A stretch of DNA of 64,000 nt from Deltaproteobacteria bacterium (GTDB lineage: Bacteria; Desulfobacterota; Deferrimicrobia; Deferrimicrobiales; Deferrimicrobiaceae). Under the pieces are notes generated by a model. It saw only the letters and a program-made list of their open reading frames with translations. It made no database searches and was not told the DNA's origin. This document shows positions 15,029 through 36,202 of this stretch, piece after piece. Position 1 is the stretch's first letter. Every line of letters begins with the position of its first letter. The DNA lies in NCBI GenBank assembly GCA_016220005.1, contig JACRIV010000014.1:695-64694 (forward strand), given 5' to 3'. Position numbers and translations under genes: made by a program.

Positions 15029-16846
15029 ATGGATTTTCTCCGCCCGGAAAACCTTCTCCGATACGGCTACAAGGACTGCCTTCTCTGCGAGGTCGAGCGA
15101 AAGGGAGAGGAGAAAAGATGCCGGCGCTGTTCCGGCAGGGTGAACCAGCGCGACCGGCTGCTCTGGGAGATCAACCGGGGGAGGATCCGCCGCATCTCCG
15201 GAAGGCTGTCCCTGATCTATCCCGGTTTCGGCCATTTCTACAGCGGCAGGATCCTCCAGGGGATATTCTGGGCCATGCTCATCCCCCTGAGCGTCGGGCT
15301 GGTCCTGAGCGTCTGGCAGGGCCCGACGATCGGCCATGCCGTCCTCCTCCTCGGCTTCGGCATGATCTATTACCTCTCCTGGCTCGACGCCCGCCGGGGG
15401 TTCCGTGTGACCCTCGCCCCCTGCCAGGAGGCCTGTCCGTCCCACCTGAACGTCCCCGACTATATCGCCCTCGTGCGCGAGGGGCGCCCGCTGGAGGCGC
15501 TCGCCCTGGTCCACGACAGGCTTCCGTTCGCCGCCTTCTGCGGGAGGGCGTGCCCGCACCCCTGCGAGCAGAAATGCGTCCGCAACGAATACGACGCCCC
15601 CATCTCCATCATGGCGATCAAGCGATATGCGGCCGATCTGGGTTACGAGGCGCTGGTGGCCCCCTCCTCCGAGGTGGGGGACGGGGTCCCCGCGCCCCGC
15701 GTGGCGGTCATCGGGGCGGGCCCGGCGGGGCTGTCTGCGGCGAACACGCTCGCGCGTCTCGGTTGTCGCGCGACGGTATTCGACGCGAACGAGGAGCCCG
15801 GCGGAATGATGCGTTACTCCGTCGCGGAATTCCGTTTTCCCTACGAGGCGGGGCTCTCGGACGCCAGGACGATCCTCGCCCGGGGGGTCCATTTCCGGGG
15901 CGGGAAACGGTTCGGGCGGGATTTCACCTTCGCCGACCTCGCGGAAGAAGGGTTCGACGCCGTGCTGGTCGCCGTCGGCACGAATGACGCGGTCCGCCTT
16001 CCCGGCGTGGGGGGAGGGGACGAAGGGTTCATCGATGCCCTGATGTTCCTTTCCGGCGTGAGGCGCGGCAAGCTGTACCATCTCCGCGGCAGGCTCGTGG
16101 TCATCGGCGGCGGGAACGTCGCCATTGACGTGGCGAGGGTAGCGGTCCGGCTCGGGGCGGAGGACGTGACGATCGCTTGCCTGGAGTCCAGGGAGACGAT
16201 GCCGGCCTTCCGCTGGGAGGTCGAGGATGCGCTCGCCGAGGGGGTGAAGCTTCTGCCGGGCACGGCGGTGAAGAAGTTCCTGCTCCGGGAGGGGCGTGTT
16301 TCGGGATTCGAGGCGCTCGAAGTGGAGAGGATCGAGTTCGACGCGAAGGGGCGGATCGTCCCCCACACGGTCCTGGGAAGCGAGTTCGAGGTCCGCGCCG
16401 ACACGGTCGTCATGGCCATCGGAAGCCGCGCCGACATGGACTTCATACCGCCGTCCGCATCGCGCAAGCCCCTGGATGCCGCCCACCATGTTTATCGGTT
16501 GATTTTTAGGGAAAAGGAAATTAGAATCCCCGCCTATATGTGCGGCGACTGCGTGCGCGGCCCGGGCACGGTCGTCGAGGCGTCGGCCTCCGGAAGGGCG
16601 GCGGCGTTGAATGTTTTCGAGGATCTCTGCGTCCAAGAGGTCAGGAAAGCGCGGTTCGAGGATAATTACAGGCGCGCGGCCGAGCCGCAGGTCACCGACC
16701 GGCCCGAGTGGCGTTGCCGGCGGCCCGTGCCACGGCTTTCACCGGAAGAGAGCCGGCGGACTTTTCAGGAAGTGGAAAAGAGATTTGCCGAGGAAAGCGT
16801 TCACCACGAAGCGGAACGCTGTGCGCGGTGTAATCTCTGGCTATAA
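15029..16846 (+). CDS. membrane-anchored glutamate synthase small-subunit (GltD)-like NAD(P)H-dependent FAD/Fe-S oxidoreductase
   Basis: N-terminal zinc-ribbon CLLCE...CRRC plus 2 TM helices. GltD-type Fe-S region CQEACPSH...CGRACPHPCEQKC. Two Rossmann motifs VAVIGAGPAGL and VVIGGGNVAIDVA. Confidence 0.7.
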   Translation: MDFLRPENLLRYGYKDCLLCEVERKGEEKRCRRCSGRVNQRDRLLWEINRGRIRRISGRLSLIYPGFGHFYSGRILQGIFWAMLIPLSVGLVLSVWQGPTIGHAVLLLGFGMIYYLSWLDARRGFRVTLAPCQEACPSHLNVPDYIALVREGRPLEALALVHDRLPFAAFCGRACPHPCEQKCVRNEYDAPISIMAIKRYAADLGYEALVAPSSEVGDGVPAPRVAVIGAGPAGLSAANTLARLGCRATVFDANEEPGGMMRYSVAEFRFPYEAGLSDARTILARGVHFRGGKRFGRDFTFADLAEEGFDAVLVAVGTNDAVRLPGVGGGDEGFIDALMFLSGVRRGKLYHLRGRLVVIGGGNVAIDVARVAVRLGAEDVTIACLESRETMPAFRWEVEDALAEGVKLLPGTAVKKFLLREGRVSGFEALEVERIEFDAKGRIVPHTVLGSEFEVRADTVVMAIGSRADMDFIPPSASRKPLDAAHHVYRLIFREKEIRIPAYMCGDCVRGPGTVVEASASGRAAALNVFEDLCVQEVRKARFEDNYRRAAEPQVTDRPEWRCRRPVPRLSPEESRRTFQEVEKRFAEESVHHEAERCARCNLWL

Positions 16847-16872: not shown

Positions 16873-17217
16873 ATGAAGAAGTTCGCAACTTTCCTGGCGA
16901 TCGTCGCGGCGGTACTGTTCTCGGCCGGGCTGGTCATCAGCGCGGAGGCTCCGGAAAAGATCACCATCAAGTTCGTCCAGAAGACCAGGCCTCCGGTGGA
17001 GTTCCCCCACAAGGCCCACATCGCGAGGGCGAAGAACTGTCAGGAGTGCCACCACAAGAACGAGGCCGGCAAAGAGGAGAAGTGCTCCAACTGCCACAAG
17101 GCCAAGACGGAAGGCAAGGTGGTCGAGTTCAAGGAGGCCATGCACACCAAGTGCAAGGACTGCCACAAGAAACACAACGGCCCGACCAAGTGTGACGACT
17201 GCCACAAGAAGAAGTAA
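16873..17217 (+). CDS. periplasmic tetrahaem cytochrome c3-family protein
   Basis: Signal peptide. Four CxxCH motifs (CQECH, CSNCH, CKDCH, CDDCH) in about 90 mature residues. Confidence 0.85.
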   Translation: MKKFATFLAIVAAVLFSAGLVISAEAPEKITIKFVQKTRPPVEFPHKAHIARAKNCQECHHKNEAGKEEKCSNCHKAKTEGKVVEFKEAMHTKCKDCHKKHNGPTKCDDCHKKK

Positions 17218-17350: not shown

Positions 17351-18730
17351 ATGGCGGACGATAAGCGCAGTCAATCCCCGATGGACAAAGTGTGGAATCT
17401 CTTCACCTCCCTGAAGCTCGCCATCACCCTGATCATCATCATGGCCGTCGCCTCCATCTTCGGGACGGTCATCGAGCAGAACCAGCCGATCGAAAAGTAC
17501 CGGCAGTTCTACAGCGACGCGACCATCAGGATGCTCGACGCCCTGAACCTCTTCGACATGTACCATTCCTGGTGGTTCCTCCTCCTGCTCGTGCTGTTCA
17601 CCGTGAACCTTTCGTGCTGCACACTCGACCGGCTGCCGCGGGTCGTGAAGGTCGTCCGGAACCCGAAGACGAGACTCGACGACGGTCTCGAGAAGACGCT
17701 CCCCCTGGTGGACCGGTGGAAGAAGAAAGGATCCCTGCAGGCCTGGGCCGAGAAATACGCGGAAGTCGTAGGGGGTGCGGTAGGGAAACCCCTCGTGACG
17801 CAGAACAGCGAGACGCTGCACCTCTATGCCGAAAGAGGCGTCGTCTCCCGCTTCGGCGTCTACGTGACCCATCTCTCCATCATTATTATTTTCATCGGGG
17901 CGATCATCGGCAACGTGTTCGGCTTCAAGGGATACGCCAACATCGTGGAGGGGCAGTCCGTGCGGTCGATCCCGACGCGGGGAGGCTCCCGGCCCGTCGA
18001 CCTGGGGTTCGAGGTGCGGTGCAACCGGTTCGCCGTCAGCTTCTACACGGACCAGTTCGGTAACCCGACGCAGCAACCAAAGGAATACGCCTCCGACCTG
18101 AGCGTCATCGAGAACGGGCGGGAAGTGCTCCGCAAGAAGATCGTCGTCAATGACCCCCTGCAGTACAAGGGGGTCTGGTTTTACCAGTCGAGCTACGGCC
18201 CGGCCGGCGGAGCCTCCGCCCGCGTCAGGGTCAGCAGCGCGAACGGAGGCCCGGTGGCGGATCTTTCGTTCCATGCGGGCCAGCAGGTGGAGATCCCGGG
18301 GTACGGGACCATCACCGGCGTGGATTACCAGCAGGACTACCGGGGGTTCGGCCCCGCCCTTCTGGTGGTCCTTAAGAAACCCGGCGGGCAGGCGACGGAG
18401 TTCTGGCTGCTGCAGGGGCGGCCCGATTCCGACCGGCAGAGACAGGATCCGTACTTTCTCTCCTTCGGGGGCCTGAGCCAGGCCTACTACACCGGTCTCC
18501 AGGTCGCCAGGGACCCCGGCGTGAACGTGGTATGGCTGGGATGCGCCCTCATGGTCCTCGGCATCATCATCGCGTTCTTCATGTCCCATCAGCGCGTATG
18601 GGTCCGCCTGACGCCTGCCGCCGACGGCCGCGTGGAGGTCGTCCTCGCCGGTTCGGCGTCCCGAAACAGGCTTGCTTTCGAAAGGAAATTTGAGAAAATA
18701 CAGGACGATTTGAAGGCGCTCGCGGTTTGA
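17351..18730 (+). CDS. resB: cytochrome c biogenesis protein ResB/Ccs1 (System II)
   Basis: N-terminal TM helices, a large periplasmic domain and a C-terminal TM with the conserved W-rich end. Sits immediately upstream of ccsA. Confidence 0.8.
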   Translation: MADDKRSQSPMDKVWNLFTSLKLAITLIIIMAVASIFGTVIEQNQPIEKYRQFYSDATIRMLDALNLFDMYHSWWFLLLLVLFTVNLSCCTLDRLPRVVKVVRNPKTRLDDGLEKTLPLVDRWKKKGSLQAWAEKYAEVVGGAVGKPLVTQNSETLHLYAERGVVSRFGVYVTHLSIIIIFIGAIIGNVFGFKGYANIVEGQSVRSIPTRGGSRPVDLGFEVRCNRFAVSFYTDQFGNPTQQPKEYASDLSVIENGREVLRKKIVVNDPLQYKGVWFYQSSYGPAGGASARVRVSSANGGPVADLSFHAGQQVEIPGYGTITGVDYQQDYRGFGPALLVVLKKPGGQATEFWLLQGRPDSDRQRQDPYFLSFGGLSQAYYTGLQVARDPGVNVVWLGCALMVLGIIIAFFMSHQRVWVRLTPAADGRVEVVLAGSASRNRLAFERKFEKIQDDLKALAV

Positions 18731-18776: not shown

Positions 18777-19616
18777 ATGATCAATGTGCGTCTTTTCGAC
18801 TTGACTACCCTCTTGTTCGGCGTGGCCTCGGTGAACTACGTGGCCGCCCTCTACGGGAAGAGAGACACTCTCGCCCGCATCGGCACCTGGATCTGCGTGG
18901 CCGCGGCGGTCGTCTCGACCGCCGCTCTCGGCGTCCGGTGGGCCGAGTCCTACCGGATGGGGATCGGGCGGATCCCGGTCACGAACCTCTACGAGTCGCT
19001 CGTGTTCTTCGCGTGGGCGGTCAACCTCTTCTATCTCGTCGTGGAGTGGAAGTACAAGAACCGCACCTTCGGCGCCTTCGTCATGCCCATCGCCTTCCTG
19101 ACCATGCTGTTCGCCTTCACGAACGAGAGCAGCATCCAGCCGCTCGTGCCCGCCCTCCAGTCCTACTGGCTCCACGCCCACGTGATCACCTGCTTCATCG
19201 GGTACGCGGCCTTCGCCGTGTCTGCCGGCGTGGCGGCGATGTACCTGCTCAAGGCCAGGCGCGAGGAGTCCAAGACCCCGGGCGGGGTGGTCGGCCTCTT
19301 CCCCTCCAGCAAGGCGCTCGACGACCTGGTCTACAAGGCGATCATCTGGGGGTTCCCGTTCCTGACCGCCGGGATCATCACGGGGGCGGCTTGGGCGAAC
19401 TACGCATGGGGGACGTACTGGTCGTGGGACCCCAAGGAGACCTGGTCGCTCATCGTCTGGCTCGTGTACGCGGCGTTCCTTCACGCCCGGATCACCCGCG
19501 GCTGGCACGGCAAGCGGGCCGCGATCCTGTCGATCGCCGGCTTCCTGGCGACGGTGATGTGTTACCTCGGGGTCAACCTGGTGCTCTCCGGGCTGCATTC
19601 CTACGGCGGCTCGTAA
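18777..19616 (+). CDS. ccsA: cytochrome c-type biogenesis protein CcsA/ResC (haem export/lyase, System II)
   Basis: Multi-TM protein with the WWD-type Trp-rich motif AAWANYAWGTYWSWDPKETWS and conserved His residues. Confidence 0.85.
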   Translation: MINVRLFDLTTLLFGVASVNYVAALYGKRDTLARIGTWICVAAAVVSTAALGVRWAESYRMGIGRIPVTNLYESLVFFAWAVNLFYLVVEWKYKNRTFGAFVMPIAFLTMLFAFTNESSIQPLVPALQSYWLHAHVITCFIGYAAFAVSAGVAAMYLLKARREESKTPGGVVGLFPSSKALDDLVYKAIIWGFPFLTAGIITGAAWANYAWGTYWSWDPKETWSLIVWLVYAAFLHARITRGWHGKRAAILSIAGFLATVMCYLGVNLVLSGLHSYGGS

Positions 19617-19670: not shown

Positions 19671-20969
19671 ATGCGAAAGTCTGTCGGTTCCATCGGGGTG
19701 GCCGTACTGGTACTCGGGATTTCGGGTTTTCTCCGCGGTGAATCCCTTGCGGCGGATGCCTGCGTGACGGCGGAATGTCACGCGACGATGGGAAAAGCCG
19801 CCTTCGTGCATGGCCCCGTCGGGGTGATGCAATGCGCCGTGTGCCACCTGGAGGCGAAGAAGGGGCACCCGACGAAGAAGGGACCGGACTTCAAGCTGGC
19901 GGCGACAGGCAAGGCCCTCTGCGAGAAGTGCCACCAGCCGGTGGACAGGTTCGAGTACAAGCATACCCCCGTGAAGAAGGGGGAGTGCCTCGGCTGCCAC
20001 GACCCACACCAGTCTTCCGCGGCCAAACAGCTGAAGAAGGCCAAGACGTCGGAGCTGTGCCACACCTGCCACAAGAACACGCAGCAGGCGAAGAAGTTCC
20101 TCCACGGCCCCGTGGCCACCGGCGACTGCAACGTATGCCACAACCCCCACTCCTCCCCGAATCCCAAGCAGCTCGTCGCGCGGGGTAACGACGCCTGTTT
20201 CCTCTGCCACGAGGACCGCAAGGCCGAGTTCACCCGGAAGTACCCGCACAAGCCGGCCCAGGAGTCGTGCCTGAAATGCCACGACCCCCACAATGCGGAC
20301 CATCCCTTCATGCTGGCGAGCGAGGGGACAGGGCTTTGCCTCGGCTGCCACAAGAAGATGGAGGAGCACCTAAAGACCGCGGCCGTCAAGCACGGGGCCC
20401 TCCAGAAGGGGACGTGCACCACCTGCCACACCCCTCATTCGTCCGACTACCCGAGGCAGTTGAAGACGCACACCAAGGACATCTGCTACACCTGCCACAA
20501 GGATATGGGCGCCAAGGTCCGCGCGGCGAAGAGACTGCACGGTCCCGTCCAGCAGAACGACTGCTACGCATGCCACGATCCCCACGGGAGCAGGAACCCG
20601 TTGATCCTCAAGAAATACTTCCCGTCGGAGTTCTACAAGCCGTACGCGACGGAGAATTACGCGATGTGCTTCGACTGCCACAACAAGGACATCGCGCTGG
20701 ACAAGATCACGACGAAGCTTACGAACTTCCGCAACGGCGACACGAACATGCATTTCCTCCACGTGAACAAGGAGAAGGGGCGCTCCTGCAAGGCGTGCCA
20801 CGAAGTCCACGCAGGGAACCAGGACAAGCACATCCGCAAGGAAGTGCCGTTCGGCAAGGCATGGATGCTGCCCGTCACCTACACGAAAACCCAGAACGGG
20901 GGCACCTGCGTCGTCGGCTGCCACAAGCCGAAGACCTACGACCGCGTCAGCCCCGTGAAGTACGAATAG
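19671..20969 (+). CDS. multihaem cytochrome c with at least 13 CxxCH sites; repeated c7-like modules
   Basis: Signal peptide. 13 canonical CxxCH plus one CX4CH and one CX3CH site. Recurrent H-G-P-V...C..CH.PH spacing as in polymeric c7-domain cytochromes. Confidence 0.85.
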   Translation: MRKSVGSIGVAVLVLGISGFLRGESLAADACVTAECHATMGKAAFVHGPVGVMQCAVCHLEAKKGHPTKKGPDFKLAATGKALCEKCHQPVDRFEYKHTPVKKGECLGCHDPHQSSAAKQLKKAKTSELCHTCHKNTQQAKKFLHGPVATGDCNVCHNPHSSPNPKQLVARGNDACFLCHEDRKAEFTRKYPHKPAQESCLKCHDPHNADHPFMLASEGTGLCLGCHKKMEEHLKTAAVKHGALQKGTCTTCHTPHSSDYPRQLKTHTKDICYTCHKDMGAKVRAAKRLHGPVQQNDCYACHDPHGSRNPLILKKYFPSEFYKPYATENYAMCFDCHNKDIALDKITTKLTNFRNGDTNMHFLHVNKEKGRSCKACHEVHAGNQDKHIRKEVPFGKAWMLPVTYTKTQNGGTCVVGCHKPKTYDRVSPVKYE

Positions 20970-20979: not shown

Positions 20980-21990
20980 ATGAGCAGGTCCCGTCGTCGC
21001 GTCCCGTTGTTTGTATTCACCTTCCTCGCGGCGGTGTGTTTCTCGACGGTCCCGGGGACAGGGTCGGCGTTCCGGAACGTCAAGGAAGGCGCCCCGGCGA
21101 TCCCCTTCACCCTCAAGGACTTCGAGGGGAAGGATTTCGAGTTCAAGCCCGACTCGGGCAGGGTCACGATCCTGTCGTTCGTGAAGCTCGCGCAGGACCG
21201 GTCGAAGGACCAGCTCAGAGATCTCGTAGCCTTGCAGGGCGAGCTCGGGCCCAAGGGGGTGGACTTCCTCATCGTCTCGAGCTATACGGACACGCCCGAG
21301 GACGCCAAGAAGGTCGCCGCGGAGATGAACGTCAAGTTCCCGATCCTCCTGGACAAGGACCAGAGGGTCTACGGGGACTACGGGCTGTTCATCCTCCCCT
21401 CCACGGGCATCGTCGGGAAGGACGGGAAGTTCGCCTTCGAGCACTCCAGCCACGGGCGCGACTTCAAGGACGTGGTGGGGGGGAAAGCCAAGGTGCTCGC
21501 CGGGCTGATGACGGAAGAGGAGTACAAGAAGCTGGTCACGCCGGTCGAAGCGGTCCGGAAGAGCAAGGAGGAGAACGAAGCCGAGCGCTTGCTGGCTCTC
21601 GGGCGGACGCTGTTCAAGCGCGGCATGCCCGACAAGGCGGCCGATAAGTTCGCCAAGGCGGTGGAGCTCGACCCGAAGAACCCGGGGGGGCGCATCGCCT
21701 ACGGAGAGTCCCTGGTGGCGTTGAAGAAGTACGACGAGGCGCTCGTCCAGTTTCAGAAGGCGAAAGAGCTTTCTCCCGCGAGCAAGGATGCGCAGTTGGG
21801 CATCGGGACCGTGCATTTGGAGAAGGGCGAGCACGACAAGGCGATCCGGGAGATCTCCGAGGCGGCGATGCTCAACCCCAAGCCCGAGAAGGCGAATTTC
21901 TGGCTCGGGGTCGCCTACGAGAAAAAGGGAGATCTCCCGAATGCGGTGAAGTACTACCGAAAGGCCGTCGAGAAGCTCATCAAGGAGTAG
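20980..21990 (+). CDS. Cys-less thioredoxin-fold (TlpA/redoxin-like) domain fused to TPR repeats
   Basis: The N-terminal half aligns with the TlpA fold (bacterial thiol-disulfide oxidoreductase), but the WCxxC position reads SFVKLAQDRS with no cysteine. The C-terminal half carries TPR-like repeats. Confidence 0.6.
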   Translation: MSRSRRRVPLFVFTFLAAVCFSTVPGTGSAFRNVKEGAPAIPFTLKDFEGKDFEFKPDSGRVTILSFVKLAQDRSKDQLRDLVALQGELGPKGVDFLIVSSYTDTPEDAKKVAAEMNVKFPILLDKDQRVYGDYGLFILPSTGIVGKDGKFAFEHSSHGRDFKDVVGGKAKVLAGLMTEEEYKKLVTPVEAVRKSKEENEAERLLALGRTLFKRGMPDKAADKFAKAVELDPKNPGGRIAYGESLVALKKYDEALVQFQKAKELSPASKDAQLGIGTVHLEKGEHDKAIREISEAAMLNPKPEKANFWLGVAYEKKGDLPNAVKYYRKAVEKLIKE

Positions 21991-22007: not shown

Positions 22008-22727
22008 ATGGCGGCGATCCGTCCGAGATCCCGGTTCTTCCTGGTCTTCCTGGCCGTCGCGGCGGGGGGGATTCTCCTCCCCGCTTTTCCCGTATCCGGT
22101 GATCCCGGCAAGTCCCCCCTGGCGGTCCTTGCCCCGGGCGATGGCGCCCTGGTGTCGGCAGGGCGTGTTCTCGTCATCGGGAGAACGGCCGGGGAAGGGA
22201 TCGTGCGGGTGGAGATCGACGTGAACGGCAAGGGGAAGCAGTCCGTCCCGGTCGCCGGCGGGGGGTTTTCGGCTTCGGTCCCCATTGCCGCCGGCAGGAA
22301 CGTCATGCGGGTGAGCGCAGGGAAGGCGTCGGTCACGACCATTGTCTCCGCGGCGGCGAACCTCTCCGCATCGGGCAAGGGGGCATACGTCTACCACGAG
22401 GGGGTGGAGAAGTGCGCCGAATGCCACGGAGCGGGGAGGAAGGGATATGCCGTCGCTTCCCCGAAAGATTCCCTCTGCTACAGGTGCCACGACCGGGTGG
22501 ACGGAAAGAAGCATCTGCACGGCCCGATGGGGAGCGGAGACTGCACGGCGTGCCACGATCCGCACGGTTCGTCCCACAAGTCGCTGACGGTGGCGCGGCC
22601 CGACTCGCTGTGCGTCACGTGCCACGATCAGAGAAGTTCCGAAGGCCATATGAATAAGTCCAGGGGGAAGGCGTGCACGTCTTGTCACGACCCGCACTCG
22701 TCGGACCGATCATTCCTCCAGAAGTAG
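22008..22727 (+). CDS. pentahaem cytochrome c with an N-terminal beta-rich domain
   Basis: Signal peptide and five CxxCH motifs (CAECH, CYRCH, CTACH, CVTCH, CTSCH). Confidence 0.8.
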   Translation: MAAIRPRSRFFLVFLAVAAGGILLPAFPVSGDPGKSPLAVLAPGDGALVSAGRVLVIGRTAGEGIVRVEIDVNGKGKQSVPVAGGGFSASVPIAAGRNVMRVSAGKASVTTIVSAAANLSASGKGAYVYHEGVEKCAECHGAGRKGYAVASPKDSLCYRCHDRVDGKKHLHGPMGSGDCTACHDPHGSSHKSLTVARPDSLCVTCHDQRSSEGHMNKSRGKACTSCHDPHSSDRSFLQK

Positions 22728-22758
22728 TTGTCCGGGGGGAATGACTTTCAGGGGGGAG

Positions 22759-23892
22759 ATGATGGGAAGGAAGGGGAAGGCGGCGAAGGCCCTTGCCTCG
22801 CTTCTGCTTTTTGTCATCGGGTTGTATGCCGCCCCGAAGGCCGCCGCCGCGTTCAAGAACGTCCAGGGGGGGATGGAGGCGCCCGCTTTTCGCCTGAAGG
22901 ACGCGGCAGGCAACGAGGTTTCCCTCGACGCGTTCAGGAAGGAGAAGGCCGTGCTCGTCGTCTTCTGGGCGACGTGGAGCGGCCGGTCGCTTGCGGAGCT
23001 CAAGGACGTCCAGAAACTGCTCGCGGAGATGGAAGCGAAAGGCCTGAAGGCGGTCGCCGTCAACGTGGAGCACGAGCACATGACGGACGAGGACTTGCGG
23101 GCAATCAAGGATAAGGTCGGGGAGCTCAAGCTGACATACCCCGTCGTGTTCGACTCCGGCCTGGAGACGTTCCGCAGCTACGGAGTGGTTGCGGTCCCCT
23201 CCACGGCCATCCTGGGCGAGGGAGGGGTGGTCCGCAGCGCGGTCAACGGCTACCCGACCTTCGTCCTCGCCGAGATCAGGGAACAGGTGGAGGTGCTGCT
23301 GGGCATAAGGAAACCGGAGACCGCCGTGGCGGCGAAGGCGGACACGGCGCATAAGCCGACCCGGCAGGCGCTCCTGAACTACAACCTCGGGCGCAGGCTT
23401 TACGCTTCCGGAATGGCCGACAAGGCCGAGCCGAAGCTCAAGACCGCGGTCGGCGCGGACCCGAACTGGGCGGCTCCCCACGTGCTCCTGGGGGACATCT
23501 ATCTCGCGAAGGCGAGGAAGGACCCGAAGAAGGCCGAGGAGGCGAAGAAGGAGTTCGAGGCCGCCATTGCCGCGGACAAGGGAAACGTGGTGGCGAGGAC
23601 CGGTCTGGCCCGGGTATACTGGAACGCGGGCGCGGCCGCCGACGCCGAGAAGGAAGTCGGCGAGGCGCTTTCGATCAGCGGCTCGTATCCTCCGGCCCTG
23701 ATGCTCAAGGCCGCTGTTCTGGCCAGGAAGGGAAATCTCCCCGAGGCGGACAACCTGATCCGCAGCGCACTCGAGCTTTCCGGGAGGGACCCCGAGGCGC
23801 ATGCCCTGGCAGGACGCGTCTACGAGGAGGCGGGGGAGCTTCAGAAAGCCGCGGGAATGTACCGGAAGGCGTGGCAATTGATCGGGGAGTGA
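22759..23892 (+). CDS. Cys-less TlpA-like thioredoxin-fold domain (WATWSGRS in place of WCxxC) fused to TPR repeats; paralogue of 20980-21990
   Basis: VLVVFWATWSGRSLAELKDV matches the TlpA active-site context with both Cys replaced by Ser. C-terminal TPR repeats. Start chosen at an internal ATG with GGGGGGAGA upstream (ORF track 22741). Confidence 0.6.
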   Translation: MMGRKGKAAKALASLLLFVIGLYAAPKAAAAFKNVQGGMEAPAFRLKDAAGNEVSLDAFRKEKAVLVVFWATWSGRSLAELKDVQKLLAEMEAKGLKAVAVNVEHEHMTDEDLRAIKDKVGELKLTYPVVFDSGLETFRSYGVVAVPSTAILGEGGVVRSAVNGYPTFVLAEIREQVEVLLGIRKPETAVAAKADTAHKPTRQALLNYNLGRRLYASGMADKAEPKLKTAVGADPNWAAPHVLLGDIYLAKARKDPKKAEEAKKEFEAAIAADKGNVVARTGLARVYWNAGAAADAEKEVGEALSISGSYPPALMLKAAVLARKGNLPEADNLIRSALELSGRDPEAHALAGRVYEEAGELQKAAGMYRKAWQLIGE

Positions 23893-23912: not shown

Positions 23913-24029
23913 ATGAGGACACGATTCATCGCGTTTCTGATTACCGCCGCGGCGGCCGGCACAGTGCTCGTGTACGGGATATACCGCGAGGAGATCGGCG
24001 AAGTCCTGTTCAACGCCGCGATGCTTTGA
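23913..24029 (+). CDS. possible 38-aa single-TM small protein (MRTRFIAFLITAAAAGTVLVYGIYREEIGEVLFNAAML)
   Basis: An intact ATG-to-TGA ORF with a hydrophobic core in the 165-nt gap before the NapH-like gene. Weak RBS. Below the ORF-track size cutoff. Confidence 0.25.
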   Translation: MRTRFIAFLITAAAAGTVLVYGIYREEIGEVLFNAAML

Positions 24030-24057
24030 CTGTCCTGCATCGGGGTCGGGTGATCCC

Positions 24058-24948
24058 GTGGCATTCCTGAAACGGCGGATCTTCCAGACGCTGGGGACCG
24101 TTCTGCCCAACTCCTACGTCCAGGGGTTTTCCCTTTCCCTGGCACACGGCGCGCTGAAAATCTCCCCGGCCCTGTACCAGGGATCGCTGAAGAGCATCTG
24201 CACGCCCCTCCTGAACTGTTACGCCTGCCCCTCGGCGCTCTTTTCCTGCCCCATCGGGACGCTGCAGCATTTCATGGTGACGGGGAACGTCCCCTATTAC
24301 GCGGCGGGCACGCTCTCTCTGGTGGGCGCTTCGGTGGGGCGCATGACGTGCGGCACCCTCTGCCCGTTCGGGTTCCTCCAGGACCTCCTCTACAAGTTCC
24401 GGAGCTGGAAGGTTTCGATCCCGGTCTGGACCCGCCACTTCCGGTATGCCGTCCTGGCCATCCTCGTCTTCCTGATCCCTTATCTCACCCACGAGAACTG
24501 GTTCTCCAAGCTCTGCCCCATGGGGACGCTGATCGGGGGGCTCACGTGGGTCACCCTCGAGCTGAACGTCCGGGCGATGATCCGTTACCTCTTCTGGGTG
24601 AAGATTTCCATCCTGCTCTTCTTCGTCACCACGTCGCTCCTGGTCAAGCGCCCCTTCTGCCGCGTCGTCTGCCCGCTGGGTGCGATCTTCTCCCTGTTCA
24701 ACAAGTCCAGTTTCATCCAGTTGGCATGGAACCCGGACACCTGCACCCGGTGCGGCAAGTGCCAGAAGATCTGCCCCGTGGACATCCGCCCGGACCGGAA
24801 CCAGACCAACCCGGATTGCCTCCGCTGCCTGGACTGCACGCGCTGCCCCAGCCTGAAGCTGACGACCGTCCTCCACAGGAACCCGTTCGCAATGCCGTCT
24901 CCGGCGGGCAAGGGAGCGGAGGGCGTCGAGGAGGTCCTTGCCCGTTGA
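24058..24948 (+). CDS. NapH/MauN/NosR-type membrane-bound polyferredoxin (4Fe-4S)
   Basis: GTG start. TM helices with CX3CP motifs (CGTLCP, CRVVCP). Two C-terminal ferredoxin clusters CTRCGKCQKICP and CLRCLDCTRCP. Confidence 0.75.
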   Translation: MAFLKRRIFQTLGTVLPNSYVQGFSLSLAHGALKISPALYQGSLKSICTPLLNCYACPSALFSCPIGTLQHFMVTGNVPYYAAGTLSLVGASVGRMTCGTLCPFGFLQDLLYKFRSWKVSIPVWTRHFRYAVLAILVFLIPYLTHENWFSKLCPMGTLIGGLTWVTLELNVRAMIRYLFWVKISILLFFVTTSLLVKRPFCRVVCPLGAIFSLFNKSSFIQLAWNPDTCTRCGKCQKICPVDIRPDRNQTNPDCLRCLDCTRCPSLKLTTVLHRNPFAMPSPAGKGAEGVEEVLAR

Positions 24949-25889
24949 CCGTCCGCAATCGACTCCCGCTCCTCCCGCTCCTCCTGCTCCTCCTCCTCAC
25001 GACTCCGACCGGCGCCGCCGAGGAGCCCCTCGTCCTCTTTCCTCCGGACCTTACCCTGGCCACGGAGGGGAAGATCAAGATCTTCGCCTACGTCCCCGGC
25101 GGGAAGACCCCGCTCTCCGTCTCGGTGAACGGAATCGCGAGGGATCCGTTGAAGGGGGAGGCGTTCCGGAGCGGGGAAGCGGAGCTGTCCCCCGGGATGA
25201 ATCTCCTCGACGTGGGAGGGAAATACCTTCGCGTCTTCCTGATCCCCGGCACGAAAATGGAGCAGTTTCGCATGCCCACGGAAAAAGAGGACGCCCCGCT
25301 CGTCTACCGATCCTTCCGCCTGCACCCCGCGCTGGATGACGGCTGCGCGGGGTGCCACACCCTCGAGGGCGGAAAGCTCAAGGCGATAGACCAGAAAGAG
25401 GCGTGCTACGCCTGCCACGACAATTTCGAGAAGGAGGAGGAGGGGAAGAAGAAATACGTGCACAGCCCCGTGGCCGCCGGGGAGTGCACGGGGTGCCACG
25501 ACCCGCATTTTTCCAGCCGTACCAAGCTTCAAAAGCTCGAAAAGGGGTGTATGGAGTGCCACGATCCCTTCCCGACGGAAGGGGTCGTCCACTATCCCGT
25601 CGGGAACGGGGAGTGCACGGCGTGCCACAGCCCGCACGCGGGGCCGGCCCCGAAGCAGCTCGTCCGCGCCGGCAACGCCCTTTGCCTGGGATGTCACGAG
25701 CACGCCCATATCCAGCACCGGTCCGCGACGGTACTGAAAAATCCGGAAATCACCCAGATTCCCCCCGACATTCCGAGAGAGAAAGACCAGTTGTCCTGCC
25801 TTGCGTGCCATCGGCCCCACCAGTCCGGCGAGCGGCGTCTTTTCCGCAGGAATCAGGGTGAGCTATGCAAGACCTGCCATCTGGTCTAG
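24945..25889 (+). CDS. octahaem cytochrome c
   Basis: Probable TTG start overlapping the upstream stop. Signal peptide. Eight CxxCH motifs. The coding frame is confirmed through the stop at 25889. Confidence 0.7.
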   Translation: MTVRNRLPLLPLLLLLLLTTPTGAAEEPLVLFPPDLTLATEGKIKIFAYVPGGKTPLSVSVNGIARDPLKGEAFRSGEAELSPGMNLLDVGGKYLRVFLIPGTKMEQFRMPTEKEDAPLVYRSFRLHPALDDGCAGCHTLEGGKLKAIDQKEACYACHDNFEKEEEGKKKYVHSPVAAGECTGCHDPHFSSRTKLQKLEKGCMECHDPFPTEGVVHYPVGNGECTACHSPHAGPAPKQLVRAGNALCLGCHEHAHIQHRSATVLKNPEITQIPPDIPREKDQLSCLACHRPHQSGERRLFRRNQGELCKTCHLV

Positions 25890-25918: not shown

Positions 25919-27415
25919 ATGCGATTTGTTCCCCGTTCCCTGTTCTTCAAGATGTCCCTGTCAATCAGCCTCGTGCTGGCGGTCATCTTCGGGGCGTCCT
26001 CCTACATCACCTTCCGGATCCAGTCCGAACAGGCGCTCGACGCCACCCGCAGCCAGGCGATCCTGCTCACGAGGGCGTTGAAGAACACGATCCGCATCGG
26101 GATGGAGACGGGACACATCGAGTCCCTGATGTCGATCTTCCACACCGTGGGGGCGCTGCCGGGCGTGGAGAAGCTGCGGGTCTTCGACGAGGAGGGCCGG
26201 ATCCTCTACTCGGCGAAGCTGTCGGAAATCGGGAAGCTCACCGACGAGCTCGACTACGCGGTCTACCGGAGCCCCGAGCGGAGCACCCCGTTCCAGAGCG
26301 CCAATACGGGCCACCGCTCGTTCTGCATGGTGGAGCCGGTCGAGAACGAACCGCGGTGCCAGCGATGTCACCGCAGGGAGATCGAGACCCTCGGTGTCCT
26401 CGACGTCTGCCTGTCCATGGAGGAAACCGAGAAAAAGATCGAGTTCAACCGGCTCCTCATGCTCTCCTTCACGGGGCTGGCGATCGTCCTCACCTCGGGC
26501 ATGACCAGCATCCTCCTGAAGCGGTTCGTCTCCAATCCCGTCGCGAAGCTCGTGGGCACGATGGAATCGGTGGAGGCCGGGAAGCTGGACGGGAGGGTGG
26601 ATATCCGCAGCGGCGACGAGCTCGGCCGCCTCGGGAACAGCTTCAACGAGATGATCCGCAAGCTCTCCGAGGCCCAGGCCGAGATCGAGAAGTTCCACCA
26701 CCGGCAGCTGGCACGGGCGGACCGGCTGGCGTCCCTGGGCGAGATGGCCGCCGGGATCGCCCACGAGATCAAGAACCCCCTCGCCGGCATCTACGGCGCG
26801 GCGCAGGTCCTCTCCAAGGAGTTCCCCGAGGGGGACCCCAAGCGCGAGATCCTGGACGAGATGATGGCGCTCATGAAGCGGCTCGACAACACCATCAGGG
26901 ATCTCCTGAACTTCTCCCGGTACACGGAGCCGCAGTTCTCGGAGGCCAGCTTGAACGACGTGATCGACAAGGTCCTGTTCCTCGTGAAGCAGATCCCCGA
27001 AGGGAAGCGGGCGACCATCACCCGGGAGTTCGACCCCGCGATGCCGGAGATCGAGATGGACCAGGAACAGATCAAGCAGGTCTTCCTGAACCTGGTGCTC
27101 AACGCCCTCCAGGCGAAGCCGGGAGGCTGCTCCCTCACCATCCGCACCTATTCGGAAGTCCCGGCGGACGTGCCCGACGTCAAGCATAACGCCCGCTTCG
27201 TGACGGCCTCGGTGACCGACGACGGCCCGGGGATTCCCGCCGACAAGATCGGGAAGATCTTCCAGCCGTTTTTCACCACGAAGGAAGCCGGAACGGGCCT
27301 GGGCCTCTCGATGACCCGGAAGATCCTCGATCTCCACGACGGGTGGATCACCGCTTCCAGCGAGGTGGGGAAAGGGGCCACCTTCCGGGTCTTCCTCCCC
27401 AAGGTCAAGCTGTGA
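25919..27415 (+). CDS. sensor histidine kinase with a haem c-binding (CxxCH) periplasmic sensor domain
   Basis: TM1 (residues about 10-32), a periplasmic domain containing CQRCH, TM2, HAMP, H-box GIAHEIKNPLAGI, and HATPase_c (DDGPGI, GTGLGL). Confidence 0.8.
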   Translation: MRFVPRSLFFKMSLSISLVLAVIFGASSYITFRIQSEQALDATRSQAILLTRALKNTIRIGMETGHIESLMSIFHTVGALPGVEKLRVFDEEGRILYSAKLSEIGKLTDELDYAVYRSPERSTPFQSANTGHRSFCMVEPVENEPRCQRCHRREIETLGVLDVCLSMEETEKKIEFNRLLMLSFTGLAIVLTSGMTSILLKRFVSNPVAKLVGTMESVEAGKLDGRVDIRSGDELGRLGNSFNEMIRKLSEAQAEIEKFHHRQLARADRLASLGEMAAGIAHEIKNPLAGIYGAAQVLSKEFPEGDPKREILDEMMALMKRLDNTIRDLLNFSRYTEPQFSEASLNDVIDKVLFLVKQIPEGKRATITREFDPAMPEIEMDQEQIKQVFLNLVLNALQAKPGGCSLTIRTYSEVPADVPDVKHNARFVTASVTDDGPGIPADKIGKIFQPFFTTKEAGTGLGLSMTRKILDLHDGWITASSEVGKGATFRVFLPKVKL

Positions 27416-27519
27416 CGGAGTGAAACTTCTCCCGGGTGCATTCCGTATACATATCGTGGGCCCTACCCCGGGTGTTCGGTTATAATCGATAAGATTATCT
27501 TAAAGGACCCCCCCAGAAG

Positions 27520-28971
27520 ATGGCGCGTTCCAAGATACTGGTGGTGGACGACGAGCGGATGATCCGCTGGTCCATCCAGCAGGCGCTCTCCAAGGACGGG
27601 CACGCCGTGGCGACGGTGGAGACCGGCGAGGAGGCGGTCGCCCAAGCCACCGACGACACCCCCGACCTCGTCCTGCTGGACATCACCCTTCCCGGAATCG
27701 ACGGGATCGAGGTCCTGCGCCGCCTGAAGGCCCACGAACCCGCCATCACGGTGGTCATGGTCACCGCGACCGAGGAGCTGAAGACCGCCGTCGAGGCGAT
27801 GCGCCTGGGGGCGTATGACTACGTCAGCAAGCCGTTCGACATCGACCGCCTCCGGGTCATCGTCCAGAATGCCCTGGACCGGCACGAGCTGAGCCAGGAA
27901 GTGGAGTTCCACCGGAAGGAATCCGTAAAGAAATACGGTTTCCACCGGATCATCGGGGTCAGCCGCAAGTTGAAGGACGTGGTGGAGATCGCCCGGAAGG
28001 TGGCGAAGTCCGAGGCGGCGACCGTCCTCCTCCAGGGGGAGAGCGGCACCGGAAAGGACCTGCTCGCCCAGGCGATCCACTACGAAAGCAGCCGGGCCAC
28101 CCGCCCCTTCATCCCCATCAACTGCACCGCGCTCCCGGAGGAGCTTCTCGAGTCGGAGCTGATGGGCCACGAGAAGGGCGCCTTCACCGACGCCAAGACG
28201 ACCAAGAAGGGGCTCTTCGAGGTGGCGGTCGGCGGAACGATCTTCCTGGACGAAATCGGCGACATGAAGCCGGGGCTCCAGGCCAAGCTGCTGCGGTTCA
28301 TCGAGGGCAAGGCGTTCCGCCGCGTGGGGGGCCACCGGGACATCTCGGTGGACGTCCGGATCATCGCGGCGACGAACAGCAACCTGGCGGCACTCGTCAA
28401 GAGCGGACAGTTCCGGGAGGACCTCTTTTTCCGGCTGAACGTGATCCCGATCCACATCCCTCCCTTGCGGGAGCGGAGGGAGGACATCCTGCCGCTGGCG
28501 GGACACTACCTTGCCGAGTTTTCCAGCGACTTCAAGCGGGACCTCCGCCGGTTCTCGGAGAGGGCGAAGAGACAAATGCTCTCGCACGACTGGCCGGGGA
28601 ACGTCCGGGAGTTGAGGAACGTAATCGAGCGGGCGATCATCCTGGGCGCCGAGGGGCAGGTGGACACCCTCGACCTGCCGGTTGCGGAGAGCCGGCTGGA
28701 CTGGGGTGCGTACACCGCCGGATCCCCGGACAGTGCAGGGGGAGAGGCCTCGGCGGAACCGGTTGGAGATTCTCCTGCCGGCCCGCCGGAGGGACCAGGC
28801 GCCGTGTTCATTCTTCCCCCCATGGGGATTGTGTTGGAGGACGTGGAGAGGGACTTCATCCGGCAGGCGCTGGAGATGACCCAGGGGAACCAGACAAAGG
28901 CCGCGGAATCACTCGGATTGACGCGGGATGCCTTACGGTACAGGATGAAAAAATACGGTTTCTTGCAATAG
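27520..28971 (+). CDS. sigma-54-dependent response regulator, NtrC family
   Basis: REC domain. AAA+ motifs GESGTGKD, GAFTDA and ESELMGHE. C-terminal Fis-type HTH. Confidence 0.9.
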   Translation: MARSKILVVDDERMIRWSIQQALSKDGHAVATVETGEEAVAQATDDTPDLVLLDITLPGIDGIEVLRRLKAHEPAITVVMVTATEELKTAVEAMRLGAYDYVSKPFDIDRLRVIVQNALDRHELSQEVEFHRKESVKKYGFHRIIGVSRKLKDVVEIARKVAKSEAATVLLQGESGTGKDLLAQAIHYESSRATRPFIPINCTALPEELLESELMGHEKGAFTDAKTTKKGLFEVAVGGTIFLDEIGDMKPGLQAKLLRFIEGKAFRRVGGHRDISVDVRIIAATNSNLAALVKSGQFREDLFFRLNVIPIHIPPLRERREDILPLAGHYLAEFSSDFKRDLRRFSERAKRQMLSHDWPGNVRELRNVIERAIILGAEGQVDTLDLPVAESRLDWGAYTAGSPDSAGGEASAEPVGDSPAGPPEGPGAVFILPPMGIVLEDVERDFIRQALEMTQGNQTKAAESLGLTRDALRYRMKKYGFLQ

Positions 28972-33206: not shown

Positions 33207-33713
33207 ATGCGTGGATGGAAGATCCCGGTCGCAGCGGCTGCGCTGCTGGCTTGCTTCGCCACGGGCGCCCCGGCGATCGAGGTGGGCAAACCCGCGGTTC
33301 CCTTCACCCTGACGAATCCGGTGACCCAGATGGAAGTGTCGCTCCCGGCCGCCCTCGAGAAGAACCCGGCGCTGATCGTCTTCTTCAATACGTCGTGCGC
33401 GGCGTGCGAGGCGGAGCTGGTCGCCGCCAAGAACTACCTGCACAACAATCCCAACGCCTTCAAGCTGTTCGCAATCGCCATCGACTCGACGTCCGACGCC
33501 CGTGCCCGCGTGAGCAAGTTCATCGAGGACAAGGGCCTCGGCGTGGCCATCGTGCTCCTCGACCCGAAGTTCGAGGTGGCCGAGAAGTACGGGTTCAACT
33601 TCACACCGGCCGCCGTGGGCATCGACAAGGAAGGGAAAGTGAAGTTCGTCGTCAACGGCTTCTCGAGGACGGAGTCGAAAGTGTTTACAGGGAACCTCGA
33701 ATCCCTCAAGTAG
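33207..33713 (+). CDS. TlpA/ResA-like periplasmic thiol-disulfide oxidoreductase (CAAC)
   Basis: Signal peptide. Thioredoxin-fold motif LIVFFNTSCAACEAEL. RBS AAGGAGGA. Confidence 0.75.
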   Translation: MRGWKIPVAAAALLACFATGAPAIEVGKPAVPFTLTNPVTQMEVSLPAALEKNPALIVFFNTSCAACEAELVAAKNYLHNNPNAFKLFAIAIDSTSDARARVSKFIEDKGLGVAIVLLDPKFEVAEKYGFNFTPAAVGIDKEGKVKFVVNGFSRTESKVFTGNLESLK

Positions 33714-33851
33714 ATTCGCAGGCGCCCGTTTCGACTCGCGAGGGGGAATTGCCTTGTAGTGGGCTCCGGCCGGCGGCGACGGGCCGGAGCCCTTTTCGCG
33801 ACCCCTTCGAAGCGGCTTCCCGGACATCTTCCGTGAGAAGGGCAGGATCGA

Positions 33852-35570
33852 ATGTTTTTCCGCGATGATTCAAAGACCCGAGCCTTGTGTATCCCGTTGC
33901 TGCTCTGGCTTATGTGCGCCGGCTGCCGTGACGGAGAGCGGAACCCCCCGCAGCAGGGCGGTGCGAAAACCGCCGCGGAGAACGCCGCGGCGGGGAGAAC
34001 GGCCGACCTTTCGCCGCAGACCGCGGCGCGGGTGGGCGGTCTCGACGTGACGTTGAGCGACCTGAGAGGGGAGGCGGCCGACAGCAAATACGACGCGTAC
34101 AAGGCGGGATCCCCCGAGATGTCGGCCTTGAGAGCCCTGGACAAGCTGATCACGGACCGCTTGCTTTACCAGGAAGCCGCCGAGAAGAAGGCGTACGAAA
34201 ACTCCCCGATCGAACGGGAGTTGCGGGTCACGCAGGAAGTCTGGCTGGCCTCCCTCTATGTCAACGAGGTACTGCGCAGGCAGGTCAAGGTGAGCGAAGA
34301 GGAGATGAAGCCCTTCCTTCCCGACAAGTGGGACTCGGTGGAGATCTCCATGCTGGTGGCCGACGACGAGGCCGCCGCGAGGAAAGCGGTCTCCGCCGTC
34401 CGGGAGGGGAAGTCCACCTTCGAGGAGGAGGCGAAGAAGGGAGCGGGCACCATCGCCCCGAAAAAGGGACGCGTCGGCTGGATCCTGCGGAACACGGCGT
34501 TCTTCACGGACAAACGCCATGTCGACAGGATCTTCTCCCTGAAGCCGGGGGAGATGACGGACCCTTTCCTTGGGCCGCTGGGATGGACGGTGGTCCGGGT
34601 CGACAATCGCCGCGGGCTCTCCAAATTGGAGATCGAAGAGATCAAGAATACATCGCGGGAGGGCCTGTACAACAGGAAGTTCGACGAGCTCCTGAACCGG
34701 GACGCCGCCCTGCACAAGTGGACGCAGTACGCCGACAATACCGTTGCCAAGTCGCCTGGCGCAGTCGTCCTGGAGGGGCTGGGCCGGGTCTACACCAAGG
34801 CGGACTTCGACACGTTCGTCAAGATCCACCTCCAGTCGGGACACCTGATCCAGCAGCCCGAGACTCCCAGGGAGATCCTCCGCAACTTCGCGCGGCACAT
34901 GTCGTGGGCGGAGGAGGCGGGGCGGGCAGGGCACGACAGGCGCACCGAATTCATCGAGAGAATGAGGAGTTTCCGGATCGCGAGGACCGCGCAGGCCGTG
35001 GAGGCGAAGATCAAGGAATCCGTGAAACCCGATAAGGATGAGCTTCTCGCTTACTACAAGAAGAACAAGAACCGGTTCCGGGAGGAGGATTCCCTCTGGC
35101 TCCTGATCCTTTCCGCCGGCGGCCAGTCCCAGGCCCGCGAGTTCCGGAAGCGGGCGGAGGCCGGCGAGGACTTCAAGTCGCTCATCCGGCAGGCGGGGAG
35201 CGACGCGCCCGACGCCCGCGGGGCGGAGGAAGTCGGCCCGCTGACCCGGAAGATGTTTCCCCCGGACCTGGCCGCCATCCTCTTCTCCCTCCGCGAAGGC
35301 GACGTCTCCCAGGTCATCCCGCTGGCGGGGCAATACATCGTGGCCAAATGCACGCGGTTCAAGGGGGGTAAGACGAAGAGCTTCGAAGCCGTTCGAAAGG
35401 AAGTCCTTAACGCCTACCGGAACGACAACTACATGCCCTTGCTCGAAAAAAAGGTGGCGGAGCTGAAGGCGCGCTACCCCGTCCGGATGAACGAAAAGGC
35501 TGTCGAGATCGTCGCAAACGAGATCAGGGAGGAGGCGGCGAAACGTGGAGGCAAGCCGAAATACCACTGA
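33852..35570 (+). CDS. SurA/PpiD-like periplasmic chaperone with two parvulin (PpiC) domains; lipoprotein
   Basis: Lipobox LMCAGC. SurA-N-like region. Parvulin signatures GRVGWILRN...PFLGPLGWTVVRV and GQYIVAKCTRF. Confidence 0.65.
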   Translation: MFFRDDSKTRALCIPLLLWLMCAGCRDGERNPPQQGGAKTAAENAAAGRTADLSPQTAARVGGLDVTLSDLRGEAADSKYDAYKAGSPEMSALRALDKLITDRLLYQEAAEKKAYENSPIERELRVTQEVWLASLYVNEVLRRQVKVSEEEMKPFLPDKWDSVEISMLVADDEAAARKAVSAVREGKSTFEEEAKKGAGTIAPKKGRVGWILRNTAFFTDKRHVDRIFSLKPGEMTDPFLGPLGWTVVRVDNRRGLSKLEIEEIKNTSREGLYNRKFDELLNRDAALHKWTQYADNTVAKSPGAVVLEGLGRVYTKADFDTFVKIHLQSGHLIQQPETPREILRNFARHMSWAEEAGRAGHDRRTEFIERMRSFRIARTAQAVEAKIKESVKPDKDELLAYYKKNKNRFREEDSLWLLILSAGGQSQAREFRKRAEAGEDFKSLIRQAGSDAPDARGAEEVGPLTRKMFPPDLAAILFSLREGDVSQVIPLAGQYIVAKCTRFKGGKTKSFEAVRKEVLNAYRNDNYMPLLEKKVAELKARYPVRMNEKAVEIVANEIREEAAKRGGKPKYH

Positions 35571-35580
35571 GCTGGACCGC

Positions 35581-36165: not shown

Positions 36166-36202
36166 GGGAAGAGTACGGCTTCCTTTTGCAGGAGAGCGGG
36201 AC

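Follow-up and report, generated by a model that had tools for sequence, protein, structure and literature searches.

The stretch considered here, referred to as the window, comprises 64,000 nucleotides from a Deltaproteobacteria bacterium of the family Deferrimicrobiaceae (assembly GCA_016220005.1, contig JACRIV010000014.1, positions 695 to 64,694 of the forward strand). It holds an island of cytochrome and cytochrome c maturation genes. Our subject is one gene of this island, here called T, which encodes a NapH-like membrane polyferredoxin, together with the very small gene directly before it, here called sm, a candidate selenoprotein gene. The two products may form a route by which reducing power leaves the cytoplasm. 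A first-pass annotation of the window had already picked out T and read it as a possible inner-membrane quinol dehydrogenase feeding the periplasmic cytochromes of the island. Coordinates are collected in Table 1.

The NapH-like protein T

T has a GC content at third codon positions of 0.90, on par with the neighbouring genes. The first-pass description of a NapH-like membrane polyferredoxin, with CX3CP motifs and two C-terminal 4Fe-4S motifs, is borne out. Read directly from the sequence, the CX3CP motifs are C98-GTL-C102-P and C201-RVV-C205-P; the first cluster motif is C229xxC232xxC235xxxC239P and the second, with a non-canonical spacing, is C254xxC257xxC260xxC263P. The protein passes the Pfam Fer4_5 family (PF12801) with 56.1 bits against a gathering cutoff of 22, in two stretches, and Fer4 is also matched. 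A profile-profile comparison with Escherichia coli NapH (hhalign) aligns residues 5-242 of T with NapH residues 27-239 at a probability of 97.5%. Since all 17 cysteines are kept in at least 81 of 83 full-length homologues, the motifs are not due to chance.

A TIGRFAM-type assignment, one of the checks proposed with the first-pass annotation, did not place T in NapH. The NCBIfam scores of T lie below the cutoffs for NapH/MauN (TIGR02163; 65.3 bits, cutoff 213.05), for the NapH equivalog (NF007013; 54.8 bits, cutoff 234) and for NosR (NF046105; 35.6 bits, cutoff 1000), the last match being confined to the C-terminal module. Given these scores alongside the hhalign probability, we regard T as a distant relative of NapH rather than an orthologue. 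Its subfamily within Fer4_5 is large and uncharacterised and has five extra conserved cysteines, C48, C54, C57, C64 and C153, all absent from NapH. The first four lie in a loop that aligns with periplasmic loop 1 of NapH, where the segment LLNCYACPSAL forms an 11-residue insertion. The segment WFSKLCPxG, in the loop that joins helices three and four, is likewise an insertion relative to NapH. In the wider family (L093:8256-9122, L094:6139-6933 and the fused proteins P0346 and P0368) this loop reads WFCK(L/V/F/Y)CPxG, a third CX3CP motif; in the Deferrimicrobia-type proteins, that of the window included, serine replaces its first cysteine (WFSKLCP).

NapH and T have in common an RRxxQ N-terminus, a four-helix core, the two CX3CP motifs, the two C-terminal 4Fe-4S motifs and cytoplasmic clusters. 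They differ in that T lacks NapG, NapA, NapB and NapC, sits in another genomic context and is almost always paired with a small selenocysteine (Sec) or cysteine partner, sm. The membrane module itself is already known: it is that of NapH, NosR and RdhC, a modular transmembrane electron conduit in which the function of the CX3CP motifs is unknown (PMC5928378; PMC8238504). In NosR, RdhC (PceC) and 'NapH-like' flavinylated systems the same module serves a periplasmic redox partner, as we propose for T (PMC5928378; PMC8238504). NosR, a related Fer4_5 protein that supports a periplasmic metalloenzyme, has a role in the maturation or maintenance of NosZ (PMC5928378). In contrast to these systems, T and its scanned neighbours contain neither an FMN (flavin mononucleotide)-binding domain nor ApbE. 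Pfam found no FMN_bind domain in T, which thus lacks the N-terminal periplasmic FMN domain of NosR; nor did it report, at E <= 0.01, the CcoG/FixG domains Fer4_18 and FixG_C. The outward-facing redox group of the T system appears to be Cys/Sec instead of flavin.

Structural searches added little. Sequence and profile searches of the PDB with T returned generic ferredoxin domains only, the membrane part being without a match. An AlphaFold2 model built from a 73-sequence alignment had a mean predicted local distance difference test score (pLDDT) of 64, with values below 50 over residues 39-62, and was too poor to be kept as topology evidence or as a fold-search query. Promoter and terminator scans gave hits at chance level, and operon boundaries were not obtained.

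Homologues were collected by a word-indexed search, an exhaustive search and a pattern-based scan of genomes, one genome per species. The word-indexed search gave 2987 matches. Cluster representatives from the exhaustive search numbered 5200 at E <= 1e-3, 1301 at 1e-10 and 246 at 1e-30, and the genome scan confirmed relatives at 434 stretches. The closest come from metagenome-assembled genomes (MAGs) of Deferrimicrobia (MBNT15), with more distant ones in Deferrisomatales, Rokubacteria and Eisenbacteria. Several homologues carry N-terminal extensions of about five extra helices or of one (P0146, P0148, P0150 and P0151, at loci L049 and L057; P0118, P0134 and P0136, at locus L086), and in all of these a basic stretch precedes RRxxQ.

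A small partner with a probable selenocysteine

The frame of sm, up to an in-frame TGA, has 38 codons and encodes one predicted helix. If the TGA is read through, the frame continues to a true stop at 24051-24053, which leaves 4 nucleotides before the start of T. At least 65 of 77 loci have the small gene immediately before T, and another four copies turned up later. In 64 of 74 copies there is an in-frame TGA, after which the frame runs on through L(S/A)CIG(V/I)G to a true stop, a tail that is invariant in all TGA forms. The codon is TGC or TGT in 10 of the 74, which read ...LL-C-LSC-IGIG. Synonymous changes occur in the tail; its serine codon switches between TCN and AGY, which shows that selection acts on the C-terminal peptide.

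A SECIS (selenocysteine insertion sequence)-like hairpin with a stem of seven base pairs and a GGGU loop begins 11 nucleotides past the UGA. Six or all seven of the stem positions can pair in 62 of the 64 TGA forms, against two of the ten Cys forms. Among 43 distinct sequences 88.7% of the cells are paired, compared with 37-56% when the partner columns are slid. Compensatory GC-to-AU changes are seen at two pairs (10 double-change cells against 4.2 expected; 1 in 500 shuffles). The folding energy of the single sequence is unexceptional in its GC-rich context (z = -0.17), and Rfam has no family for the hairpin. The conserved tail, the alternation of Sec and Cys and the hairpin indicate that sm is probably a UxxC selenoprotein. 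A scan of the window for further in-frame TGA codons that might be read through gave no convincing candidate.

Existing annotation comes close to sm. With U written as C, it scores 30.2 bits against NF040920, the CD1871A family CXXC motif-containing protein, for which the cutoff is 32; scores of 26.0 and 29.9 bits were also obtained, with full coverage of the model (positions 2-38 of 38). NCBI has given the CD1871A name to a Cys-form homologue of sm from Deferrimicrobiota (P0204). Databases hold 46-residue Cys forms as well as many 38-residue forms that are cut at the Sec position. A 2026 review that tabulates selenoprotein families (PMC13188914) does not list this one, and our literature search found no paper on CD1871A. 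The pair sm-T is also found on its own, as a unit of two genes with unrelated genes around it; in one such case, a WOR-3 bacterium, all motifs of the T family are kept. No cytochrome genes were found within the 14-16 kb seen around such pairs.

Domains fused to T

The 150 best representatives of clusters at 50% identity were surveyed for fused domains with profiles and a hydropathy window. Twenty of them combine T with an extra predicted helix (one in most cases) and one or two thioredoxin-fold domains, whose active sites (WCGPC, or CGPC, CEPC, CTPC, CDPC and CAPC) are of the ResA/CcmG/TlpA type. In the three fusions read by eye, the extra helix has its basic residues on the T side. Four others are fused, in either order, to Fer4_20 and Pyr_redox_2, the same domain pair as in the GltD-like flavoprotein gene that begins at 15029 in the window. 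Because in two of these (P0284 and P0288) the GltD-like domain follows directly on the ferredoxin domain of T, the latter is cytoplasmic, as it is in NapH. None of the 150 matched the 13-haem cytochrome of the island, the sole haem-protein probe used. The fusions point to an NAD(P)H-linked Fe-S flavoprotein as the likely donor and to periplasmic thioredoxin-fold proteins as the likely class of acceptor.

Gene neighbourhood among relatives

We compared 80 species-level loci by tblastn and iterated hidden Markov models, with about 20 kb covered per genome. The resB and ccsB genes of System II cytochrome c maturation lie upstream of T, on the same strand and within 8 kb, in 33 of the 41 loci with enough upstream DNA; in 31 of 41 the upstream genes include a GltD-like one. 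A c3 cytochrome gene was found in 40 loci. If sm is ignored, the gene directly upstream of T encodes a protein with thioredoxin-fold and tetratricopeptide-repeat regions (Trx-TPR) in 30 of 70 cases and CcsB in 26. Downstream the picture is more varied: among 58 loci the next gene encodes a histidine kinase in 20, a membrane protein without assignment in 11, a multihaem cytochrome in 10 and a thioredoxin-fold protein in 9. In about 25 species the order is compact, with GltD-like, c3, resB, ccsB, sm and T separated by short gaps (28 and 4 nucleotides at locus L081) and no cytochrome following T. On the counts over these loci, what stays constant beside T is the set of cytochrome c maturation genes, not any one cytochrome. 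Neither NapG/NapA genes nor those of MauM and methylamine dehydrogenase occur in the related loci annotated with Pfam.

A termite-gut MAG, Nt197P3bin122, is reported to carry no more than five multihaem cytochromes, and iron reduction is not predicted for it (PMC9386147); at its locus (L040) GltD-resB-ccsB-sm-T is retained. One homologue, P0120 (54% identical; L083-L085, GCA_002897695.1, BDTG01000004.1), sits in divergent orientation beside the System I genes ccmE-ccmF-ccmH-ccmI, and no sm gene was detected upstream of it. We at first considered this neighbourhood as strong independent support for a tie to maturation, but have downgraded it, as relatives 73-81% identical to P0120 sit in System II clusters.

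The backbone of the island also matches the Geobacter 'cytochrome c biogenesis gene cluster #2', ppcA-resB-resC-cytochromes-NHL-omcE (PMC2700814, Table S5). The two have in common a small c3/c7 cytochrome, resB, resC/ccsB, multihaem cytochromes and an NHL-repeat protein. The Geobacter cluster differs in having no T, no sm and no thioredoxin or TPR genes, and in Geobacter CcdA/DsbD is encoded elsewhere (GSU1322).

A proposed role in reductant export

We propose that sm and T make up a two-subunit inner-membrane relay that would carry cytoplasmic reducing power to periplasmic thiol:disulfide oxidoreductases, and we put the probability of this at roughly 0.55. The steps of the pathway are all inferred; gene order, conservation, the fusions, the alternation of Sec and Cys and the hairpin are what we observed directly. 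NAD(P)H would reduce the GltD-like Fe-S flavoprotein, which is probably membrane-anchored, and this would pass electrons to the two cytoplasmic [4Fe-4S] clusters of T. From there they would cross the four-helix NapH-type core by way of the two CX3CP pairs at the inner face and continue through the family-specific cysteines C48, C54xxC57, C64 and C153, in loops aligned with the periplasmic loops of NapH, to the U-x-x-C (C-x-x-C in Cys forms) at the C-terminus of sm. The selenol/thiol pair of sm may then reduce the ResA/CcmG-like thioredoxin-fold proteins of the island, so that the CXXCH cysteines of apocytochromes would be kept reduced for haem attachment by ResB-CcsB. By the positive-inside rule the N-termini of sm and T are predicted to be cytoplasmic and the C-terminus of sm to lie outside; the alignment with NapH would likewise place the extra cysteines of T outside.

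In the textbook System II pathway the reductant is supplied by CcdA/DsbD. By analogy, sm-T is proposed to do the same job by different chemistry. Like DsbD, CcdA and ScsB, it would bring cytoplasmic reductant to periplasmic thioredoxin-fold proteins for cytochrome c maturation, and its genes share the same type of neighbourhood, with ResA-like and ResB/CcsB genes. The T-thioredoxin fusions match DsbD in joining a membrane domain to a periplasmic thioredoxin domain. There is no sequence relationship between T and DsbD/CcdA (PF02683), and the likeness that we claim is one of the way of working only: Fe-S clusters and a flavoprotein donor take the place of thioredoxin, and a small Sec subunit is added. 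A jackhmmer search with the beta domain of E. coli DsbD found no DsbD/CcdA homologue in the window or in 90 related loci.

What appears to be new is a T subfamily whose members have extra loop cysteines and a small Sec/Cys subunit and are linked to both a flavoprotein donor and thioredoxin acceptors; it is these features together that imply a DsbD/CcdA-like role without DsbD homology. No reducing pathway joining a NapH-like protein to thioredoxins was found in our search of the literature. A broader statement is possible, which we offer tentatively and would not yet bet on. It is that sm-T and the membrane-anchored GltD-like flavoprotein constitute an NAD(P)H/Fe-S/Sec reductant exporter that replaces CcdA/DsbD in the System II pathway of Deferrimicrobia and several other phyla and, in its fused forms, serves extracytoplasmic thioredoxins more widely, with sm as a new selenoprotein family that annotation cuts at residue 38.

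Several points weigh against the relay. The Trx-TPR proteins encoded directly upstream of sm-T (20980-21990 and 22741-23892) had to be ruled out as electron acceptors, as CxxC occurs in none of 70 long homologues of the two; they look more like apocytochrome chaperones, a role that is probable for the first. No selA, selB, selD or tRNA-Sec gene lies within the 64-kb window, so that the Sec machinery was not seen. Adjacency to System I is confined to the single lineage of P0120. The multihaem cytochrome that follows T with a start-stop overlap in 10 of 58 loci, the window among them, fits electron delivery to a cytochrome. Helix 1 of T has only weak hydrophobicity, and it is the NapH alignment that gives the topology of the N-terminal third; if this third were cytoplasmic, the transmembrane route would be left unexplained. 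With about 20 kb covered per genome, CcdA/DsbD could be encoded elsewhere in genomes that have sm-T. The function proposed for the T subfamily is read from sequence comparison.

Genes of the island

In order, the window carries serC, serA, purA, tRNA-Lys and tRNA-Glu, followed by the GltD-like flavoprotein gene; an apparent gap at 13344-14700 proved to be an intact purA. The order then runs c3 cytochrome, resB, ccsB, 13-haem cytochrome, Trx-TPR, 5-haem cytochrome, Trx-TPR, sm and T. Beyond T, an 8-haem cytochrome is followed by a histidine kinase and then a sigma-54 regulator; next come an NHL protein and a 14-haem cytochrome, and after these thioredoxin-fold protein (Trx), PpiC, Trx, cytochrome, Trx, Trx and cytochrome. 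Seven CXXCH proteins are encoded between 16873 and 39674, and T does lie, as first annotated, among multihaem cytochromes.

Table 1. Features of the cytochrome island in the window.
Feature	Position	Strand	Basis or remark
GltD-like NAD(P)H-type Fe-S flavoprotein (Fer4_20 + Pyr_redox_2), proposed cytoplasmic electron donor	15029..16846	+	Domains; fusions elsewhere
Small tetrahaem c3/c7-type periplasmic cytochrome	16873..17217	+	Position corresponds to ppcA of Geobacter ppcA-resB-resC
ResB (CcsB-type subunit), System II cytochrome c synthetase	17351..18730	+	Domain scan
CcsB/ResC-type subunit, System II cytochrome c synthetase	18777..19616	+	TIGR03144, 291 bits (cutoff 188)
Multihaem cytochrome, 13 CXXCH	19671..20969	+	
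Thioredoxin-fold + TPR protein without CxxC	20980..21990	+	Sub-threshold CcmH/CycH-type TPR, 40 bits (cutoff 42)
Cytochrome, 5 CXXCH	22008..22727	+	
Thioredoxin-fold + TPR protein, WSGRS in place of WCxxC	22741..23892	+	
sm, 46-codon one-helix protein, in-frame TGA (24027-24029) probably read as Sec	23913..24053	+	C-terminus ...FNAAML-U-LSC-IGVG
SECIS-like hairpin CGGGGUC-GGGU-GAUCCCG	24041..24058	+	Last base is first base of GTG start of T
T, NapH-like (Fer4_5) membrane polyferredoxin, 296 residues, GTG start	24058..24948	+	Motifs, Pfam, NCBIfam, hhalign
Cytochrome, 8 CXXCH, putative TTG start overlapping stop of T (TTGA)	24945..25889	+	
Histidine kinase (one CXXCH in sensor part) + sigma-54 response regulator	25919..28971	+	
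Four ResA/DsbE/TlpA-like thioredoxin-fold proteins with CxxC (33207, 35545, 37327, 37932), PpiC-type isomerase (33852), cytochrome (36062)	33207..38471	+	

The GltD-like flavoprotein has an N-terminal, zinc-ribbon-like pair of CxxC motifs and a strongly hydrophobic segment at residues 75-97. The membrane anchor that we assign to it on account of this segment would be uncommon in its family. The second Trx-TPR protein is predicted to be redox-inactive, because WSGRS stands for WCxxC. The four short thioredoxin-fold proteins further downstream do have CxxC, and their best matches are ResA, DsbE and TlpA.

The overlap between T and the next cytochrome gene, likewise noted in the first pass, is present as TTGA at 24945-24948. 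The stop codon of T is the TGA at 24946-24948 and the TTG at 24945-24947 opens the 8-haem cytochrome frame. The choice of this TTG as start codon is inferred; the product has a signal-peptide-like N-terminus, MTVRNRLPLLPLLLLLLLTTPTGAAEEP. In its sensor part the histidine kinase (25919-27415) has the CXXCH motif CQRCH, at residue 147, which points to a sensor that binds haem c.

The earlier statement that nap, mau and nos genes are missing holds for the window: domain scans of most of the other sizeable open reading frames in the 64 kb found none of NapA, NapB, NapC and NapG, none of NosZ, NosF, NosY, NosL and NosR, and no Mau protein. The one nos-like hit is a lone NosD-type right-handed beta-helix protein (57787-59202), which comes after an FG-GAP repeat protein in the segment 56180-59202; as nosZ, nosF, nosY and nosL are all absent from its surroundings, it does not mark a nos cluster. 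The gene at 39678-41585 encodes a 635-residue protein with several hydrophobic stretches, as judged by eye, and no Pfam or NCBIfam match. In about 11 species it is conserved as the gene right after T, and glycosyltransferase genes follow it; the protein may be a membrane glycosyltransferase.

Alternative readings

The strongest competitor of the relay is the first-pass proposal itself, in which T is a (mena)quinol dehydrogenase of the inner membrane, NapH-like and without NapG, that passes electrons to periplasmic multihaem cytochromes. The relation to NapH, MauN and NosR and the want of a partner operon in the window have stood; the quinol dehydrogenase has not found support, and we consider it unlikely. 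In its favour are the homology with NapH across the whole four-helix core, the overlap of the 8-haem cytochrome gene with the stop codon of T, the cytochrome after T in 10 of 58 loci and the PpcA-like c3 gene in nearly every cluster. In addition, NapH homologues beside multihaem cytochromes in anaerobic methanotrophic (ANME) archaea have been proposed as quinol:cytochrome c oxidoreductases (PMC9012536). Against this, the NapH and NosR scores are below cutoff and the cytochrome neighbour is not conserved: in some 25 species ccsB-sm-T has no cytochrome after it, and there are sm-T pairs without any nearby cytochrome gene. The fusion partners are thioredoxin and an NAD(P)H-flavoprotein, with 0 of 150 representatives matching the 13-haem cytochrome probe. 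A quinol dehydrogenase would also leave the UxxC selenoprotein subunit and the five extra cysteines unexplained, and has no evident periplasmic metal cofactor site that would reach a haem. The first-pass annotation took cytoplasmic Fe-S clusters as a sign against a quinol dehydrogenase, and cytoplasmic is where the fusions P0284 and P0288 place them, but this is a poor test because genuine NapH is likewise described with cytoplasmic Fe-S clusters (PMC9012536).

The remaining three alternatives we rank as less likely than a quinol dehydrogenase. A quinone-independent path could lead from NAD(P)H over the GltD-like protein and T/sm to the PpcA-like c3 cytochrome, or in reverse as electron uptake, and would connect the pyridine nucleotides of the cytoplasm straight to the pool of periplasmic cytochromes. 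Most loci do have GltD-like, c3 and T genes together (31 of 41 with GltD upstream, 40 loci with c3), and T-GltD fusions exist. Nevertheless, the c3 gene is separated from T by resB-ccsB and fits the Geobacter arrangement ppcA-resB-resC, which has no T, and the thioredoxin fusions and the Sec/Cys motif favour thiol chemistry over haem reduction; we think such a path quite improbable.

Still less can be said for a CcoG-like role as an assembly factor that reduces metal or haem, for example by keeping exported haem iron ferrous for ResB-CcsB. CcoG is a Fer4_5 cupric reductase for cbb3 oxidase assembly. Membership of the same superfamily and a position right after ccsB would suit this role, which we hold to be very unlikely, since T is without FixG_C or Fer4_18, disulfide chemistry is the better fit to the thioredoxin fusions and the UxxC partner, and stand-alone sm-T pairs have no cytochrome genes in the 14-16 kb seen. 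NosR was formerly taken for a regulator, and its NCBIfam name is still 'transcriptional regulator'; that T is a redox sensor or signalling accessory of the adjacent histidine kinase and sigma-54 regulator has no better prospects, even with the kinase as the commonest downstream gene (20/58 loci) and CXXCH in its sensor part, as many loci have T without a kinase, the fusions point to electron transfer and T contains no DNA-binding or signalling domain.

Significance

To our knowledge, every textbook bacterial route that supplies periplasmic reductant for cytochrome c maturation belongs to the DsbD/CcdA family. If the relay formed by sm and T is real, there would be a second, unrelated route, which would change the annotation and the engineering of cytochrome-rich, metal-respiring bacteria. 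It would also add a selenoprotein family that gene callers now cut short, and provide a first testable function for the CX3CP motifs of NapH, NosR and RdhC. The subfamily concerned is large, with 246 cluster representatives at E <= 1e-30 and relatives at 434 stretches when one genome per species is counted.

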